The notes under the pieces: model-generated | Told to the model about the DNA's origin: nothing | Database searches by the model: none | The model's input: only the letters and a program-made list of their open reading frames with translations | Shown: positions 935 to 62,608 of the stretch, one piece after another | Layout of the letters: every line of letters starts with the position of its first letter | Numbering within the stretch: position 1 is the first letter of the stretch | Program-made: the position numbers and the translations under genes | Origin: Octopus vulgaris | Taxonomy: Eukaryota | Length of the DNA: 64,000 bases | Direction of reading: 5' to 3' | NCBI GenBank assembly: GCA_951406725.2 | Contig: OX597822.1 | Location: 15,376,001-15,440,000, forward strand

Positions 935-1493
935 CTGTGCGTGTGTGTGTGTGTGGGGGGGGTGTATCTATGTATACTAGCTTGCCCCGTGCCGTCAAAG
1001 ATGACGGCTAATTGTAGTAATTTAAATATAAATAACGTACAAAACCAACTTTTTACTTTAATAAATCTTTGCACCCTTAGTGGTTAGCCATACTGAGATG
1101 GCAAATATACCTCACTTTGCCGTGCAGTTACTGTTTATACCTCATTCAGAGATTTATTATTGCTTGCATACACTTTTTCAAGATCAGTGACGAAAAGTTA
1201 CTGGAAAAAGGATATAAATATTTGCATTGGGAACTCCTTTCATCGAAAACCGGTGTTTTGACTCGTCTAGGGACCCCTCTTTCATCTGCGTATTGAGAAG
1301 TTAGCTGCCTATTTTGTTGAGTGAGTTCGTTTTTTGTTCGTCGTTGTTTGTGTTTGCTCGTGAATTGAACAGTTGTCCGTTGTGTGACAGTAATTTTCGC
1401 CCTACGGGGCTCAAAATTCTGTGTATAAACATTGTTATTACCTTCGGGGTAATTTTTTTTTTTTTTTTTAAATTGGTTCTCATAATTTGAGAA

Positions 1494-2747
1494 GTGGAGT
1501 TCGACTTGGCGTCGAGGATCGACTTTCCCGTGATGGGAAAAGGCGAACAGAAGGATATCGAGGTTAGAAAACAGTCTTTTTCGGCCGCAGTGGGCGGAAC
1601 CGTAACGGAAGTGGAATTCAAAATAGAACAGTTGTTCGAATACCGGAACTTGGTCAAAAAGAAGGCAACGAAATAAAACTGGTACCGCCGCAAGCGATAT
1701 TACAGGAAATAAAGGCCAAGACAGTGGTGTACAAGGTTTACAGTAACAAAGAGAAAAAAATAATAGACGTGAAGAACGAAATAGTAGAGAAGTGCTTGTC
1801 CCCGGTGAGGAGCAAAATTCGCTACGTCGGTCGACGTGTCCGCAGCGCTACCGTTGAAGCACATTTCGACTCGGCTGATGTGGCAAGAGAGATTTCATCG
1901 ATGACCGTAAAAAGTGAGGACATCATGTTACTACCTACCTATATGGGCAAAAGAACTACGAAACTATATGTGGAAGACATACCAAGAGGATATGATATAA
2001 TGTGGGTAGCAGCGGCGGTTCTGCACGACGTAGAGCAGAAAGTCTCAATTCTGCAGATGAAAAGGAAAGAGGAGGTAAACTGGAAGGGACAAGCGCTCGA
2101 ACTCCTCGTTCAAGCAGAAAATAATGTGCTAGAAAACTTACCCGATAGGGTATTTATTGAGGAGGGAATTACAATGAGAGTGTCAGTGGAGGGGCGCAGA
2201 CGTAGGTGTTTCAAATGTGGCGAAAAGGGTCACGTCCGCTCGAACTGCATAAAAAAAGAGAAAAACAGCGAAGCCCCTCCTCAAAGTGCTTCAATCACAG
2301 AAAAAGAAAAGGCGGAAAAAGACCCGAAGACTGCGATAAGGAAGGGAATCGAAACGGAAGATAAAAATGAACAAATGGAATTTACACAGGTGACACACAA
2401 AAGAAAAAAGAGAAAATACCCTGGACTCCCCTCCCCAAACAAAGAAAAAATCAGCAAACACCGCAGAGATACATACAAAACAAATTCCCCAGCCCTACCC
2501 CCACGGCACAATATTCATTGGAACACAGTTCGCCAAGCCCCTCCCCATAAAACAAGATTGGAAAAAATTGATTAAAAAAATGAAAATGATTGTAGCATTC
2601 GACGAGAGGAACGATAGAGTGTTTATGTATTTAAAATTTTCAAAGCTGAAATTATTCAGTAAGTCTGCAGAAACTAAGTCGACCACACGTTTTGCGAAAA
2701 TAAAGGAAGACAAGTGGAAGGAAAAAACACTCCAAGAACATTTTTAA
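1494..2747 (+). pseudogene. LINE ORF1 (gag-like, CCHC zinc knuckle), disrupted
   Basis: CFKCGEKGHVRSNC knuckle in ORF 1724..2575; flanking pieces separated by stop/frameshift; ends approximate. Confidence 0.8.
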
Positions 2748-2955
2748 AATAACCTTATCAGAGACGTAACTAACGAAATACCGGAGGGCAAACTTACTAT
2801 AACCTCGGCAACCACACCTACCCAGAGCCCGATGGCAACGCCGGTTAAGAGCCCTGCAGCTACGACCACAAGGGAGGAAGAAGGGGAAGCATGCAGATTT
2901 AAACTGTCATGCTCCCTGTCCCAACCGTAAGTTTTTTTTCTCTCTCTCTCCGACA

Positions 2956-5900
2956 ATGGCAAAGCTGGGTTGTGTGAATGTGCGTGGAATGGGGTCGAAA
3001 TGGAAATAAATTTGTTTCCTGAAAGACCTCACGACACACGGAGTGGACGTAGCTATTGTAACCGAGTCCAAGATGAACGGGGCCCAAGCGTTCTCGCCTC
3101 TTCTAAATGGTTTCGAGAAATTTATTTCTCCTAGCCGAGGAGGAGGAATGGGCGTGGCAGTCCTTATCAGGAAGAGCTTGGATTTGCAGGTAAGTACTGT
3201 CTTTCTGGACACAGAAGGCAGGCTGGTCGTTCTGGATGTGACCCACGTAAGTAAACAGTCCTTCAGGTTGGTAGCTGTCTACGCTCCGAATGAGTGTAGG
3301 CAGTCGGGTTTTCTTTCGGAATCTGGAGCACTTTTTAGTGACGTCGAAAACGGTAGTCTTAGTAGGGGACTTTAACACTGTCCTCGAAGCGCGGGTCGAC
3401 AGTGTTGGCTCAACCAATAGGAAGGGGAACCCTAGGATCAAGGGTCTACTAGAGAGCTTTAATCTAGTAGACCGTTATCGACTGGATGAGCCGAGCGTTC
3501 CACAGTGGACGTGGAGTAACAACGACGGCTCACGCAGATCGTGTATAGATAAGATATTCGTTAGGAAAAGAGATAAGGATACGTTTAGTTGTCCACAGTT
3601 TCACATTGTGCCTTACACGGATTACAAATTTGTGACTTGTAGGGTGCAATTAGATAAGTGCCATAGACAGGGACCCGGGTACTGGAAGCTGAACAAGTTT
3701 ATTTTGAATTGTGAAGACTTCCGTACCCGGATTAAGGTGTTAGTACAGAGGGCATTATGTGGCACCATCATTAACAATAGATGGTGGGACACCCTCAAAA
3801 GAGCCATTCGTTCAGAGTCCATTAGATTTAGCAATCAGCTAAGGTTACATAGGTCTAGGATAGAGGACGATTTAGTTAAGAATCTAAACGAGGCAATGGA
3901 ATCTGGCTCTGCATCCGGAGTGATGGCGGCAAGGACGGTATTGTACCGTCACCTTAACTCCAAACACGAAGCTTGCAGAGTTAGAGCTAAGCTACGCGCA
4001 GGGAAACGAGAAGGTATTAACGTTGCCGGATGGGCCCGTCGAGTGGAGAGTCAGAGAGGTAACAACGCTTCAATCAAGTCTTTAACTGACGAACAGGGAC
4101 ACAAGATCTATGGACAGGAGGAGATGCAAAAGTTTCTTCACCAGCATTTCGCCCGCGCGTTCGGGGGGGGGGTCACTGGAGCGGGGGAGGGCCTTAAAGG
4201 ACTTCCTAGCCGGCGGACCGCGGCTTTCGGGGCGTGAGGTGGAGTGCTGTGAAGGAGCGATCACTCCAGCGGGGAGAAGTCGCCGGGGTTGGATGGTCTG
4301 CCTTACGAGTTTTATCAAAGTATGCCGGACTTGTTCGGGGGAATACTGGCAGGCGTCTACGCGAACTGGCAGCAGAACGGGAGAATTCCCAGTTGTGTAA
4401 TCCGGGGAGTGGTGACGCTAATCCAGAAAGACCCGAGCAAGGGGGATAACATTAGTAATTACAGGCCCATAACTCTACTTAATGTAGAGTTAAAGATTTT
4501 GGCCAAGGTGTTGGCAAAAAGGTTGACGACTGTCGTGGAGAAACTTGTAGGGAAAGCACAGACATGTGCAATTCCAGGCAGGTTGATCCAGGACAATCTT
4601 CAACTTATACGCTACACCTTAGATATGGTGGGTAAATTAACCGGCAAGGGCGGGGTAATGGTCCATTTAGACCAAAGTAAAGCGTTCGATAGGGTAGACC
4701 ATAAGTACCTGACGACGGTCCTCGAAGCGGCTGGACTGGGCCCTGAATTTCGCGGGTGGATCTCCGCTATGTATAGCGGCATCACGTCCACCGTCCAGAT
4801 AAACGGTTACCTAACAGAACCGTTTTCGATCGAATGTTCAGTTCGTCCAGGGTGCCCCTTGTCACCACTTTTGTACGTGTTGGCTCTCGAGCCATTGCTG
4901 CGAAAGTTGGAGAGGCTGGGAAGTAACCCGGATGAGATCGGAGGCGGGAGGACGGTTTCTGCTTATGAGGATGACGTCACTCTCATCGTGTCCAATGAGG
5001 CTCAGCTAATTTTTGTAGAAGATGCTATCAGAGAATACGAGGCGGTGGCAGGAGCAAAAGTTAACAAGGACAAGTCGATTGGCTTACCCCTTGGCACCTG
5101 GAGGAGCAAGTCGATATCGTCCAGTGCCGTGGGACACTGGACAGATGGTCCTGTTAAGTTGCTAGGAGTTTGGTTTGGGCCAGACTCCCAAACGGAGAGG
5201 AATTGGAGTGAGGCGACGGACAAGGTGGAGGCCATAGTACGGACCTGGTCCGGAAGGTTTCTGTCCTTGAAAGGAAGGGCGGAGGTGGTACAGATGTTCA
5301 TTGCATCTGTAATCACTTACCGCCTGACCGTTGTCCCTTGTCCCGATTCATGGCTTAGCAAGTTGGAGCGAATCCTTTTCCGCTTTTTGTGGAAGGGAGG
5401 AAAGCCACTTGTGAGGCGCTCCGTTTGCTGCTAGGAACCGTTAAAGGGTGGGTTAGGAATGCCTTGGTTGATGATGCACAGACATGCGTTGCGGTTGAAG
5501 CATCTCTGGCACCACCTGGAGGGTGATAAGGTGTGGAGTCTGCTGGCAGGGGAATTTTTCCCGAGACCGGCTTCCTTAGTGAATTTTAAACCCGGTTGCA
5601 TCAAAAGACGGAATCTGACTTTATGGCAAAAGGAGTGCCGACAGTCACTCACGCTGATCCACAAGGCGGGCAAGGCCGGCTGCGGAAATACCACCTCGGT
5701 ATTTTATAGCAGGCTGGTAGAGGCAAAGAACGACGACGTCCTAGGTGGGGCTCTGAGGTTCGACGAAGACCAGCTTACCAACCTGTTTAAAAAGACTTTC
5801 AGGACGGGGTATTTGGATAATTTCCAAAGATCCCTGGCCTGGCAGTGTTATAGGAATGCTTTACCTGTTCGCGAGAAGTTATCGAGGCACGGAATTTCAG

Positions 5901-6334
5901 TGCCACCGACATGTCCAAGATGCGGGTTGGACGATGAAACCGTCCAGCACGCTTTTGTACACAGTCGGCAGTTGTCAGACTTGATAAGTTACGCAGAACA
6001 CGTGTTATCGCATCTGGGACGAGTACAGCTGCCGGCTGAGTCTATGATTAAGATGATACCGCCAACTGGACTCTCGAAGGAAGGTGAGGCATGTTTTCAC
6101 TGCACGGTTGCAGTAGTAAAATAATGCATGTGGCGTACAAGAATAGAAGGAGTCGCAATAGGATCCTTTGACTCAGGCCCCGGCTTGCTCACTTACTTCA
6201 GATATCATCTGAAGAGCAAAATGGGGCTGGAAAAGAAGACCTTACCACGAGGTGTGTATGAAAAAAGATGGAAGGAAGTGGCGAAAAAGGTGGGTGTCAG
6301 AAACCAGTTTAACAATGGATGGAGAAGAGGATAG
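2956..6334 (+). pseudogene. LINE ORF2: APE endonuclease + reverse transcriptase + C-terminal zinc finger, multiply disrupted
   Basis: APE motifs NVRG, YAPN, VGDFN, IDKIF; GPGYWKLN linker; RT motifs YRPITLLN, LDQSKAFDRVDH, PGCPLSPLLY, AYEDDVT; CPRCGLDDETVQH; stops at ~3008, 5432, 6122 and frameshifts at ~3310 and ~4200-4280. Confidence 0.93.
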
Positions 6335-6575
6335 GAAAGCTGCGGGGCCTTACAGGTTGCCGGGGTTTAAAATATATCGGTAAGATTTCAATCTAACGTA
6401 ATGTTATATTAGTCAATGCAAAGTACAATTTAAATACAGTTTTTTGTATAATGAATAATCCATATATTTTGGAAATTTTTAAAACGAACCACTTAACTGT
6501 TTTTTGTATGTATGTCCTGTATTGTTCATCAATGTAATGATTTTATAATCGTAATAAAGAATTAATCGAAAACCG

Positions 6576-6634
6576 GTGATTGTCGTACGCTGATGACGGG
6601 TCAACACCCAGAAACTGCTGTCCGTGCGTATCAC
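6576..6634 (+). ncRNA. Type I hammerhead ribozyme motif
   Basis: GTGAT-tgt-CGTACG [CTGATGA] c GGGT-caac-ACCC a [GAAA] C-tgct-G [TC] CGTGCG-t-ATCAC; bulged stem I, 4-bp stem II, minimal stem III; predicted cleavage after C6622. Confidence 0.85.
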
Positions 6635-7726
6635 TTAAGTTGACGAGGGAAGGATGACCTCCCTTTGCAAATACCGATAGGGCACAGAAAGTGTGCCTTT
6701 AGCCAGCTGGAGGAGATGTTCTCCTGGGGCTACAAGCTACAGTAACACCCACCCTTAGTGGTTAGCCATACTGAAATGGCAAATATATCTCACATTGTCG
6801 TGCAGTTACTGTTTATACCTCGTTCAGAGATTTATTATCTTTTATTACCATTTTTTCTTCTGAAAGTTCTATCCGCAAGTAACCTCCATTCACTGCTTGT
6901 TTCCTTCAGAAGAATGTTTAAGCTTTCCTTCCTTCTTGTTCGACTTAAGGCCACATAAAGTTGACTGTGACTAAACACGGGAGCTGAAAAGAAAATACCA
7001 ACTTTTTGGAAGTGATGTTTCCTTTCAATTGTGCTCTCCATTACTGAAACCGACCTAAACTCATACGACTTCAAGCCACACAAAAGTAGCCTGTGACTAA
7101 TAGCTGATGTAAAAACTCCCGATTCAAAATTTATTACAGAAATTTTTCAATACAAATAAATTAGGTACATGTATGAACTGTTAAATTTGTATTTATAATA
7201 TACTTTTCAACTGCAGTCGTATTATATTCTTGATACACTCAGGCAATAATTATTTTCTCTAATGAGTTTGTATATGTTTGTCTAGAGGTGTGTCTGACTG
7301 TAATAATTATTTTTATCAAAACAAATAGAATATCTTTGCAATGTGTCAATGTCATCTAGTCGTTGTCGCTTGAGATGTCATATCGATCATCGTTTGTTAC
7401 TGAAATAACAATAGCTCACACATACAGTCTTCCCTTCTACACACACACATGCACACAAATACTCACACAGTGTTCAAATGCCGTTTGATTTTTTTCAACC
7501 CCTTCCTTTGTCATTCATACGTTGTGACGGAGAAAAGCACAACATATAGTAGAATATACACGACGATCTCTTTGCCACTTCCTCTCTCCCATTGCTATTA
7601 CATTCTCTCACTCCCTCTCAGTCATGGCTATTACTCTCACTACTTCTCCTTCACTGAATTACTATTGTCTCTCCCCTCCCTTCACTTACACTACACTTTG
7701 TCCTACTCCGTATTTTTGGACAATTG

Positions 7727-26159: not shown

Positions 26160-28970
26160 TTAATCGTTTGTCGTAGACCCGTTAAGAAGTGGCCTGTATT
26201 TTGTAATAAAGAGAGTTTCTTTACTTATTCGTTGTCTCGAGGTTGTATCGTCCCTAAATTGGTAGAGGGGGAAAATCCTGAAGCCTGGTGTTTTGTTGGC
26301 GCAAGTATCTATATGTTGGCTGAAAGCTATTTTTCTGTTTTGGGGAGTTTTTATCTGGGATCTGTGCAGGGCCATTCTTTTACCCAAACTATTTTTTGTT
26401 TGGCCTATGTACTGCTCTTGACACCCGGAGCAGGTTAGTGAGTATATTACGTTCTCCGAAGCACATGTGAAGTTGCTTTTCACTGTAAACCGTTGTCCCT
26501 GCTTGAAGGAGAACTCTGATCCCTCAATTAGATAATCGCATATCCCGCAATTGGGTCTTCCACATTTTTTTACTGTCGGCTTCTGTGTTGAAGAGTGTAT
26601 TCGGGCTTGTGTTAGGAGACTTTTCATAGATTTAGGCTGTCTCTTGCTTTTTGTGATCGTGTGTGTTTGGGGGATTGTGTTCATTCTGTGGTCGTTTTTT
26701 AGGAGGGGTATGTTGTGGAGGATGGTGCCGAAGGCTTCATTATTGAGAGGGTTGTGTGTGGAAATGTATGGTAAGGCTTTTGGTCGTAAGTTTTTCTTTG
26801 ATTTGGGATGTCTCAGTTCCTTGATGTTAAGTTGAAGGGCACGTTGAATGCACATGTCAATAAGTGAAGGTGTGTAGTTCCTGGTGATAAGGGTATCTTT
26901 TAGTTCTTGTAGTCGTGTGTCTCTGGTGTTTGCATTAGAAACTATAGTGCATATCCTTTTTGCTAGATTGAAGGGGATATTCATCCTGGTGTGTCTGGGG
27001 TGGCATGAATTGAATGGAAGATATTGCTTAGAATCTGTAGGCTTATAATATATGTCTGTTTCTATTACATTATTAGCTTTCTTAATGAGGATATCGAGGA
27101 AGGGAGTTGTTGCTGGCTATATTCCCTCGTGAATTGGATGTTTACGTCCAGTCCGTTTAAAATTTCTTGGAATTCTATGAGTTTTTCTATATTTTTATGC
27201 CAAAGAATGAAACAGTCATCTAGATATCTCTTCCAGTTGTTTTCTATGTTGATGGAGAAAGGGCTGCCATATCTTTCTAGAACCTTACGATACAGACTGA
27301 TCTCTAGATATCCTATGACTAGGTTGGCAAAGGAGGGGCCATTCATGTACCCATCGCAGTCCCCGATTTTTGTCGGTAGAAGTTGTCTTTGAAGGCGAAG
27401 AAGTTATTTTCCAGGATGAATTTAACCCCTTCTATCACGAATTCTTTTTTGATGCGATGTGGTAGTTCGTTGGCGTGATTCTCTAGCCAGAATTGGATTG
27501 CCTCTAGTCCTAGGTTGTGGGGGATATTGGAGTAGAGGTTGACTACATCGAAGGATACCAGTATGGTGTTTTTGTTTATAGTATTCGGTAGGTGATTGAG
27601 CATATCCAAGTCGTCCCTTATATAGCTTTTGACATGTTTGAGGAGTGGTTTTAACAGGGTTTCTAAAAAGTTACTGGGGCGGTGGGTTTCGCATGCGGGA
27701 CCTGCTATTATGGGTCTCAATTTGAGGTCATTAGGATTAGGGACTTTAATTATTTTGTCTGTAGCTATCTTGCATGCGTTGCTTATTTTCTCACTTTTGT
27801 GTATCTTAGGTATACCGTAGAATTGGCTGGTTTTACTTGTGACATTGGTCATATAATCATATTCTTTGTCGGTGAGCCCTTCTTTGTATGGGTTTAACAC
27901 GGATTTTAGTTCCCTCATTATTTTTTGTTGACTGTAGTTTTGTGCCTTTTCATAGTATGTTGTGTCTTCCAGCATAGATAGTACCAAAGTTATCTAAAAT
28001 GTCGTATCCATTAAGACAACAGCACTTCCTTTATCGGCCTCTTTGATTGTTATTGTTTTATCTTGTTTTAATTTGTTCAACTCAGCCCATTCTTTTTTGC
28101 TGAAGTTTGGTTTGTGTTTTTGTTTGTGCATATGTTGATATGGGTAATTTGATATGTGGTCACAGAAATCATCAAGTGTTTTGTTCTTACCTTTAGAGGG
28201 GGTGTAGTTACTCCTATTTCTGACTAACGATTCGTCCTCGTTGTATTTGTCGTATAGCTCCTCAGTAAGTCTTAATTTTCTGCAGAATTCTGCGATGTCT
28301 TCTTTCATTTCATTGTAGTTGGGGTGTTGTGGGGTCGGTGTAAACTTGAGTCCTTTGGCAAGTATGTTTATTTGGTTTGCTGTTAGTTCCTTGTGAGTTA
28401 GATTGATAATTTTTATCACTTTTGGTTCCTCCTGCTTGTTTCGTGCTATCTTGTGTCTCTGTGTTTGCGTATTGGGTCTAAAAAATGAATGCGGTGGTTG
28501 GGACGGTAGTTATTATATAGTTGTTCTTTGTTGATGTGGGGTCTCCTGTTGTGATTTATGGTGTGTGTTCTTGGAACAGTATTGAGAAGAGCGTCCCGAT
28601 ATCCCATAATCGGGTGTGGTGTTCTAGGAGGCCTTCGTTGGTAATCATTGCGAGTTGTGTGGGTTTGTTGTGCATGGTTGTTTAACCGGTTGTTGGAACG
28701 AAGATTTCGTTGGTAACTCTTTTGGGTGGGGATAAGGTTGCAGTGTCTATCCTGTGGGTATTGATTTATCCTTTCTCTGCTTGAAGTGGGGGTATTCCTG
28801 ATATTGTATCGCTGGCTGCTTACAGAGTTAGGGTTAGGTCCTGTATTCTTTTTTTGATAGTAGTGAAGGTTCCGATTTTTAGACAGGTGGGTATCGGTGT
28901 TTGCGTGTTGTTTTGGTTTTCTTATTTTCTGGAAAGGGTTGTAGGAGGCGTGCTCTGCTTGAAAGACGGC
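26160..28970 (-). pseudogene. PLE polyprotein: reverse transcriptase + GIY-YIG endonuclease, frameshifted and 5'-truncated
   Basis: LAKGLKFTPTP, FYGIPKIHK, LRPIIAG, LVSFDVVNLYSNIP, YRQKSGTAMG, RYLDDCF, CGRPNCGIC linker, VIYSLTCSGCQEQYIGQT. Confidence 0.93.
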
Positions 28971-61443: not shown

Positions 61444-62608
61444 GTAAAATAATATGTGACACTTATTCAATAGCCAAAATAAAACTCTGAGTTTCAAATG
61501 CCGAGGTGGAAATCCACAACACCATCTCTTCAGTTATCTGGCCATCTGTAAAACTCTATGAAAAAAGGCCATTATACAATGGGAAATTACTGTGTTATAA
61601 TTCCGCTACTTATATAAAAGCGCTGATCCAATGACCGCTAATTAAAATAAGGTTAAAAGTTCATAGTAAACACGTAAGCATACCTACTCATACGCACACA
61701 CATGCGCACGTATACGCCACTTTACTCGCATTTTTCGCCAAATGTATACGCATATATATACAAACTCATACACACACGTGCGCACCGTAAAAGTTCATAC
61801 ATACGTCTATATACGCAGAAGCACAAGAAAAAAATGGTTAAAGGTAATAATACAGAAAAAAAGCAACAAAGCAGAAAAAAACATAAGGAAGGATACAAAG
61901 CGTAAAACTACGTTCATATACAAACATGCCCTTATGCACGCACACAAACACTCGCCCATATATGTACATACCCGCACATGTTTATATACGCATACACACA
62001 CACGCATACAGAAAAAAATAGATTATACATACGCCCCAAAATAACGAAAAAATTGTAAAAATACTGAGTAAAACCGTCTATGTATATGTATTCTTATGCC
62101 CGCGCATACGCACACATCTGCATACGTACACATCCGTCCACTCATACATATTCACACACGCGTACAAATGAATCAATATACACGTCTATATAGGCACAAG
62201 AAAAAATGCAAGATGGAAGAGTACAGAAACAATTATTATGTGTAAAAATATAAAAATATATGAAAAAATAAAAGGTATAATGAGATAAAAAAAACTTCTT
62301 TGGACATAATATAGAAAGCAAGCAAAAATTTTGGTACATGTGGGCATGATCCGAAAAGTTCTGTCCTTGAGTTTAGACATGTAGTAGGGTCTAAGCTGCT
62401 TTTTCAGATAAGCCATCTTTCCATGTCGCATAGACCGCACTTTCCGCTGCCGTTGGTGTAGGGCTTATATTTGGCCAAAATCTTTATGGTCGTAACCATG
62501 TATTTTCTGGGTTCGATCCTTCCACACAGCGTCTGCCAAATCACATCATTCAACCCAGAAATAGGCCGAACAATCGAGTAAAGTCTCGATGTTGTCCAAG
62601 CTCGTTTT
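61441..62608 (-). mobile_element. PLE 3' remnant: endonuclease C-terminus, long 3' region, hammerhead-bearing end at (TA)n
   Basis: KILAKYKPYTNGSGKCGLCDMERWLI*...LNSRTELFGSCPH at 62330-62500; hammerhead on the same strand at 61473-61543; plus-strand partial copy at 63368-63491. Confidence 0.65.
61473..61543 (-). ncRNA. Type I hammerhead with branched stem II
   Basis: Minus: GCCAGATAA [CTGAAGA] GATG...GTGGA-tt-TCCAC...CATTT [GAAA] CTC-A-GAG [TT] TTATTTTGGC; stem I GCCAGATAA/TTATTTTGGC. Confidence 0.7.

Follow-up and report, generated by a model that had tools for sequence, protein, structure and literature searches.

The closest described relatives of the element reported here are the metazoan non-LTR retrozymes, non-coding units of ~350 nt with a G+C content of 41-44% and a type I hammerhead ribozyme (PMC7229834), which like our unit occur as monomers, partial tandems and arrays, and for which a Penelope-type mobilisation has been proposed (PMC7229834; bioRxiv 10.64898/2026.07.22.740005). 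A 2026 preprint treats them as non-autonomous derivatives of Penelope-like elements (PLEs) (bioRxiv 10.64898/2026.07.22.740005). Purified PLE protein starts reverse transcription at two adjacent internal sites and extends on both nicked strands (PMC11167929). Other mobile elements can in turn serve as targets of LINEs of the Tx1 clade: Tx1L resides in the piggyBac element Tx1D, Tx1-Mar in Mariner, and families from crocodilians in LTR as well as Harbinger elements (PMC4494074). The main text of PMC7229834 mentions neither octopus nor cephalopods. Here we describe, from a 64,000-nt stretch of Octopus vulgaris DNA (the window) and the 2.8-Gb genome (227 contigs) that contains it, what we read, with a probability of roughly 0.8, as a dispersed high-copy 355-nt hammerhead retroelement, likely non-autonomous and of Penelope type, which at this locus was later split by a target-specific LINE. 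The features of the locus, in window coordinates, are the following.

1072..1255 (+), 5′ part of the hammerhead unit (u1-184), with a variable, 5′-truncated end at 1072
1219..1255 (+), upstream arm of a predicted long helix I extension, pairing with 6635-6673 and holding the LINE target
1242..1255 (+), left copy of the 14-nt target-site duplication
1256..6564 (+), LINE of family 1, L1-group (Tx1-type), full-length, decayed
1568..2575 (+), ORF1 remnant with a CCHC zinc knuckle (PF00098, 20.7 bits against a cut-off of 20.8)
2956..6124 (+), ORF2 remnant in several frames, with AP endonuclease (PF03372), RT (PF00078) and zf-RVT (PF13966)
4253..5434 (+), RT domain of ORF2 (PF00078)
5435..6124 (+), zf-RVT domain of ORF2 (PF13966)
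6565..6578 (+), right copy of the target-site duplication
6576..6634 (+), type I hammerhead motif with core at 6590-6596, predicted cleavage after 6622 and a 2-bp helix III
6579..6749 (+), 3′ part of the unit (u185-355)
6750..6838 (+), terminal redundancy (u1-89)

Rejoining 1072-1255 to 6579-6749 reproduced both the unit of 355 nt and the repeat of its start (6750-6838 against 1072-1160, 89 nt with 5 mismatches) that a preliminary description of this DNA had reported. In unit numbering, u1 corresponds to window position 1072, u184 to 1255, u185 to 6579 and u355 to 6749; u228, directly after which cleavage is predicted, lies at 6622, and u89 of the next turn at 6838. This last position is the “long” 3′ end of the unit family, the “short” end being near 6794-6796; the 44 nt that separate the two correspond to a tail of Penelope type. 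The five hairpins named in that description are all visible in the sequence, and the unit was correctly called non-coding, as it contains no ORF and hence no RT plus GIY-YIG frame of the kind that an autonomous PLE carries. The 14-nt duplication around the LINE is perfect (1242-1255 = 6565-6578). Frameshifts and one stop disrupt the reading frame of ORF2, and the LINE has no poly(A) tail, with an AATAAA at 6553-6558 shortly before its end. An 87-nt direct repeat (78-93%) is located at 727-813 and 7235-7323, ~260 nt ahead of the element and ~400 nt beyond it, and shows no sign of membership in the hammerhead-unit family.

A motif scan of the whole window for type I hammerheads gave two matches, the 6576-6634 motif and a second, weaker one near 61533 (-). 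With Rfam, the whole window yielded nothing at gathering score, and 6400-7000 contained no match to a hammerhead family at E<=5. Folded by itself, the motif of 69-80 nt did no better than shuffles (z of 0.24 and -0.05), so that the prediction of a type I hammerhead, which we share with the preliminary description, rests on the motif match and on the family. A named structure of 40 pairs was compared across 12 uninterrupted natural copies: 92% of cells were paired, and two-sided changes were present in 8/40 pairs (0/500 shuffles; shuffled sets gave 3.5 and slid controls 0-3), counts that do not amount to a probability because the 12 copies are kin. Among 80 distinct motifs collected, the core CUGAUGA was found in 48, and positions 3 and 8 were occupied by C-G (58), U-G (14) or U-A (8). 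The helix III insert was palindromic in 66/80 motifs, with several different palindromes, and non-palindromic in the 1072-6838 copy. Hammerheads with a short helix III are known to act as double hammerheads, and the palindromic inserts suggest such an action here. Dimer action of the hammerhead has been demonstrated for axolotl retrozymes (PMC7229834). The earlier remark that a single hammerhead could not excise a monomer applies to the 1072-6838 copy, which has one. Folding as a circle, also proposed at that stage, gave stable predicted structures for six natural cleavage-to-cleavage monomers (z -1.8 to -6.4), in which the long helix I extension joins both monomer ends; one of the six belongs to family B, a 375-nt hammerhead unit (L181, L182) ~60% alike to family A and with the same end-joining fold. 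Family B also exists as a tandem.

We then considered the unit as a repeat family. An exact 21-mer of its 3′ end matched the genome 1,683 times (control 0), and BLAST-type searches with the unit gave thousands of first-look candidates. For the analysis of copy ends, the first 100 of the 1,683 matches to the 3′-end motif, chosen against query bias, were converted into 93 segments (some matches were common to one segment, and four in a 119-nt tandem gave none), five of which were dropped because of LINE junctions or ends beyond u125. In the remaining 88 segments, 46 of the 3′ ends were short (u38-50), 33 long (u85-99) and 9 elsewhere, that is, 79/88 copies end at two sites ~44 nt apart. The 5′ ends, on the other hand, were smoothly spread, and 19/88 segments were longer than one unit. 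A set of 180 loci contained 44 adjacent inverted pairs, 24 of which joined a short to a long end while none was short+short or long+long; the other 20 involved LINE junctions or other ends. Flanks were mostly AT-rich or microsatellite. At the window copy, a 10-nt inverted match between the left flank and the 3′ end was taken as chance because no long+long inverted pair was seen. The two fixed 3′ ends, the tail and the short+long inversions make likely the Penelope-like machinery that had been put forward for this element, the mobilising enzyme being deduced from insertion signatures.

The unit is best filed as a non-LTR retrozyme and is likely a non-autonomous Penelope-type one. It is small (355 nt) and non-coding with a type I hammerhead, which covaries within the family, and tandems with at least two hammerheads occur in the family (L265, L006, L028, L056, L314); these traits, together with the 1,683 exact 21-mers, bear out the retrozyme-type family proposed at the outset. 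Two adjacent 3′ ends, 5′ truncation, an inverted 5′ copy and AT-rich targets are the traits of non-autonomous PLEs. The ends and the inverted pairs also agree with the two internal start points and the two-strand extension of the purified PLE protein (PMC11167929). With 150 of 6,136 candidates scored, no autonomous PLE with the terminal sequence of the unit was matched in 42 loci around GIY-YIG matches or in 331 other loci. The window itself holds a decayed PLE at 26178-28485 (-), with 58-67% protein identity to an intact 781-aa family of the same genome and without sequence match to the hammerhead unit. Many GIY-YIG PLE copies (L199, L204, L223-L230) carry the uninterrupted 781-aa frame, which suggests that this Penelope family was recently active. 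Shorter derivatives of the unit were also observed: ~16 tandem copies of a 50-nt hammerhead piece (u172-222) at L028:2174-2974, a minisatellite derived from the unit, and four matches to the 3′-end motif at 119-nt spacing (L277-L280).

The preliminary description had regarded the LINE as an accidental interruption, a view that the genomic copies contradict, since the LINE proved to be a site-specific resident of hammerhead elements. The 3′ ends of family 1 lay at the hammerhead-unit target in 30/30 retrieved loci, followed by 27 family-A hammerheads, 2 family-B hammerheads and 1 sister LINE stacked on the site; family B units are thus also targeted. A unit preceded the 5′ end in 29/30 loci and another LINE copy in 1/30. 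At the LINE target the hosts were 60-100% alike (~73-100% within family A). Genome wide, the LINE 3′-end pattern had 46 matches, with the target next in 39; the 7 off-target matches comprised 4 without LINE and 3 in 71-84% diverged LINE families. Paired target duplications were identical in 12/17 cases and differed by 1-2 letters in 5, and host-specific target variants were present on both sides of the LINE. The family 1 LINE is target-specific, with its site just upstream of hammerheads. The target, ATCG-N4-CYGG, is within one arm of the predicted helix I extension, a position in which RNA structure is likely to maintain both its conservation and its availability. Once the LINE is inserted, the hammerhead lies 57 nt past the LINE end and is parted from its upstream pairing arm. 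At several loci (L132/L097, L135/L111, L142, L373) the 5′ duplication copy has letters of the commonest type at positions that differ in the host subfamily, which would fit a LINE RNA that carries along part of the target as a leader.

The architecture of the LINE is of Tx1 type, with a CCHC knuckle in ORF1 and AP endonuclease, RT and C-terminal zinc finger in ORF2. Protein searches with a 53%-identical full-length relative gave an E value of 3e-70 for human L1 ORF2p and ~4e-25 for R2, and no named Tx1 reference was among the matches of the LINE protein searches; by its architecture, the LINE is a putative member of the Tx1 clade. Its flanks exceed the share by which site specificity has been defined for Tx1 elements, namely more than 20% of flanks in one target (PMC4494074).

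A sister family (family 2), whose ORF2 protein is 82% identical to that of family 1, provided a second view of the same target. Among 30 of its 3′ ends, 21 were at the hammerhead target (20 in units and 1 in a family-1 LINE on target), 5 at the start of U2 genes and 4 in other sequence. The U2 genes that follow are complete from model position 1 (Rfam, 164-185 bits). The U2-resident copies fall into two clusters (C3, C23) and hence do not represent five independent events. In four full-length ones, the LINE is separated from the duplicated U2 start by one and the same 14-nt word, a relic that is one letter off the target of a hammerhead subfamily that hosts their closest relatives. In a midpoint-rooted tree of 29/30 family-2 copies, the U2 copies were placed inside a clade (95/86) of hammerhead-resident copies, with near-zero branches in 4/5. 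The relic word and the nested position point to a likely recent change of target from hammerhead to U2 in a young branch of family 2. Other observations were made at these loci: L356 and L357 contain a U2 gene array with a 1.75-kb period in which most repeats hold a 62-nt piece of the hammerhead unit in inverted orientation, and a third LINE family has its 5′ end directly after family-2 3′ ends (L237, L263, L264, L360-L364), beginning in L263 just past the hammerhead cleavage triplet.

These data raise a broader proposal, which we hold to be tentative and on balance rather unlikely, that the ATCG of the target is a transcript start in the retrozyme as it is in U2, and that the LINEs target start sites and use the host promoter together with a 3′ cut by the hammerhead, the U2 branch being a target switch with a relic leader. 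The 14-nt relic starts exactly at the A of the target, transcription starts at the U2 target, and 38 host junctions have an AT-rich, TATA-like box ~30 nt upstream of the target; the three suggest an aim at start sites and transcription from a host promoter, and the downstream hammerhead could possibly act as 3′ cutter of the LINE RNA. The relic represents, however, one ancestral event, which weighs against the idea, and the TATA-like box has a competing explanation, as its bases also form an arm of the RNA stem. A predicted pile-up of host 5′ ends at the LINE target, a putative start site, was rejected: the unbiased sample (n = 88) showed 2 against 3.5 expected, and the pile-up in an earlier 180-locus set was a query-edge artefact.

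Which RNA served as template was approached through the predicted cleavage site. An early hint that copy ends pile up at this site disappeared, since 42/88 segments extend past it and 0/42 stop within -10 to +5, against 3.9 expected. A cleaved linear monomer would yield at most 216 nt of cDNA, which, given the 42 segments passing the site, points to a circle or an uncut multimer. The preliminary description had explained the 1.25 turns of the window copy by a reverse transcriptase running past one full turn of a circle. The lack of a stop at the cleavage site is compatible with a circle; an uncleaved multimer, however, would give identical DNA, and the copies are not freely permuted. The search for tandem and permuted copies proposed at that stage did reveal tandems, among them an array of 10 units (L265), while free permutation was contradicted by the 79/88 copies that end at the two 3′ sites. 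The 1.25 turns of the window copy are one draw from a smooth length distribution in which the 3′ end is at two sites and the 5′ end varies. Comparison of the two turns within 39 long segments (some loci perhaps counted twice) gave 7.1% difference, and rare variants were common to both turns of one copy at 13 of 3,679 sites, against 0.11% between loci, values that could not separate circle from multimer. Contigs of four presumed-RNA sequencing runs cover the unit and the LINE and are silent on strand, ends and circles; one of them joins across an empty LINE target.

We lean slightly towards a circle as the probable template. The alternative, to which we give somewhat less weight, keeps the same element and enzyme and takes as template a linear, uncleaved multi-unit transcript of tandem or partial-tandem loci, with no circle involved. 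Tandem sources do exist, namely L265 (~10.2 units) and the family-B tandem; 1/88 segments alone passes a second cleavage site; the drop-off rate climbs beyond ~270 nt upstream of u1 (small numbers), and a steeper drop-off at length would suit finite linear templates; and for the Anolis PLE the unprocessed RNA predominates as substrate in vitro (PMC11167929). Such a template, however, leaves the covariation of the hammerhead and of the end-joining stem across subfamilies without reason; selection on cleavage is best understood if cut monomers return to the cycle. The L265 array, moreover, is young and locally grown, hence not the source of older copies. This array (G000:C4:13620700-13624400) consists of near-identical units, with 9 complete units between 10 targets; variation is confined to u15-58, the old terminal redundancy, and a few single sites, and its two haplotypes match the left and right ends, so that its likely mode of growth was unequal exchange, starting from a 1.2-turn copy and taking place between that copy's terminal repeats. 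L265 shows how a copy of ~1.2 turns can seed a multi-ribozyme locus.

Two further alternatives concern the nature of the element, and both fare much worse. Taken by itself, the 1072-6838 copy resembles repeat-body-repeat, and PLE remnants are abundant in the genome, so an LTR/TRIM-like unit with 89-nt terminal repeats, or debris left by an autonomous Penelope element in the form of solo pseudo-LTRs, might be envisaged; we consider this improbable. Fixed ends on both sides, which the preliminary description had named as a finding against its own reading, were not seen: only the 5′ ends vary while the 3′ ends occupy two sites, and the redundancy ranges from none to ~270 nt. No short target duplication surrounds the window copy (the longest word common to both flanks is 5 nt), the units are joined head to tail without an ORF, and across 331 loci neither the position nor the strand of the PLE protein matches with respect to the unit is constant. 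It is still harder to maintain that LINE and unit travel as one composite, the fixed site being a single old insertion that was amplified, although most family-1 copies are full length, with 1.5 kb or more from the 3′ end present in 24/30. Six copies 5′-truncated within 1.5 kb are also on target, and truncated copies carry their own duplications. In the 25/30 loci compared (5 short ones were left out), LINE copies diverged by 3.0% and their hosts by 16%, without correlation (Mantel r 0.03, p 0.38); LINEs in hosts that differ by up to 34% differ from one another by 1.4-4.7%. The site serves two LINE families as well as stacked insertions, and a host family just 60% alike is also targeted. The truncated on-target copies, the absence of a distance correlation and the host-specific duplications exclude hitchhiking.

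Returning to a non-autonomous Penelope-type retrozyme later split by a target-specific LINE, its history might be reconstructed as follows. RNA from multi-unit loci would cleave itself into monomers, probably as a double hammerhead, whose ends would be held by the long helix I extension and then ligated. In trans, an RT/GIY-YIG protein of Penelope type would begin reverse transcription at an internal site, u45 or u89, using one nicked strand or both, and would drop off at random, here after 444 nt or 1.25 units. Later, a LINE endonuclease likely cut ATCG-N4-YYGG in the conserved stem, giving rise to the 5.3-kb insert and its 14-nt duplication, and in the sister LINE family the same motif preference likely permitted the recent move to U2 gene starts.

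Compared with known systems, the host is a new retrozyme family with unusually clear mechanistic signatures. Retrozyme papers show circles experimentally, whereas the octopus unit is known here from DNA alone; conversely, those papers link retrozymes to PLEs through co-occurrence and pLTR trees, and we do so through insertion anatomy, evidence of a kind we did not find in the accessible text of PMC7229834 and bioRxiv 10.64898/2026.07.22.740005. With PLEs the unit shares 5′ truncation, partial tandems, an adjacent inverted 5′-truncated copy and a tail at one end (PMC8557442), as well as AT-rich or microsatellite targets and a hammerhead in the terminal repeat (PMC8557442; PMC11167929). It differs from them in having no ORF and a tail of ~44 nt instead of 30-40 nt, and does not match in sequence any of the autonomous PLE families sampled from the octopus genome. 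Like Tx1-clade LINEs, family 1 combines AP endonuclease and RT with a fixed site inside a different mobile element, and shows duplications of ~14-17 nt and stacked insertions (PMC4494074). Its target is nonetheless a hammerhead retroelement, and no PLE, retrozyme or ribozyme is among the targets given in the accessible text of PMC4494074 (supplements and Repbase aside); nor did we find in the literature (Repbase and most subscription papers aside) a report of Tx1 LINEs targeting PLEs or ribozymes. Keno and Utopia, like the U2 branch, insert in U2 genes and form tandem insertions (PMC4640811). Downstream of them U2 begins at nucleotide 39, whereas the family-2 branch is followed by complete U2 from nucleotide 1 and is nested among hammerhead-targeting copies, which sets it apart from Keno. 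The targeting by these LINEs and the U2 switch are a new variation on Tx1-type specificity.

Which enzyme and RNA form spread animal retrozymes thereby becomes testable in one genome, with the Penelope insertion signature present in hundreds of copies and the RT start sites mapped, where the literature has so far relied on co-occurrence and trees. How target-specific LINEs change targets can be tested as well, as sister families (82% in ORF2) use one site in a mobile ribozyme, and the young U2 branch with its direction-giving relic offers a natural series for studies of endonuclease specificity.
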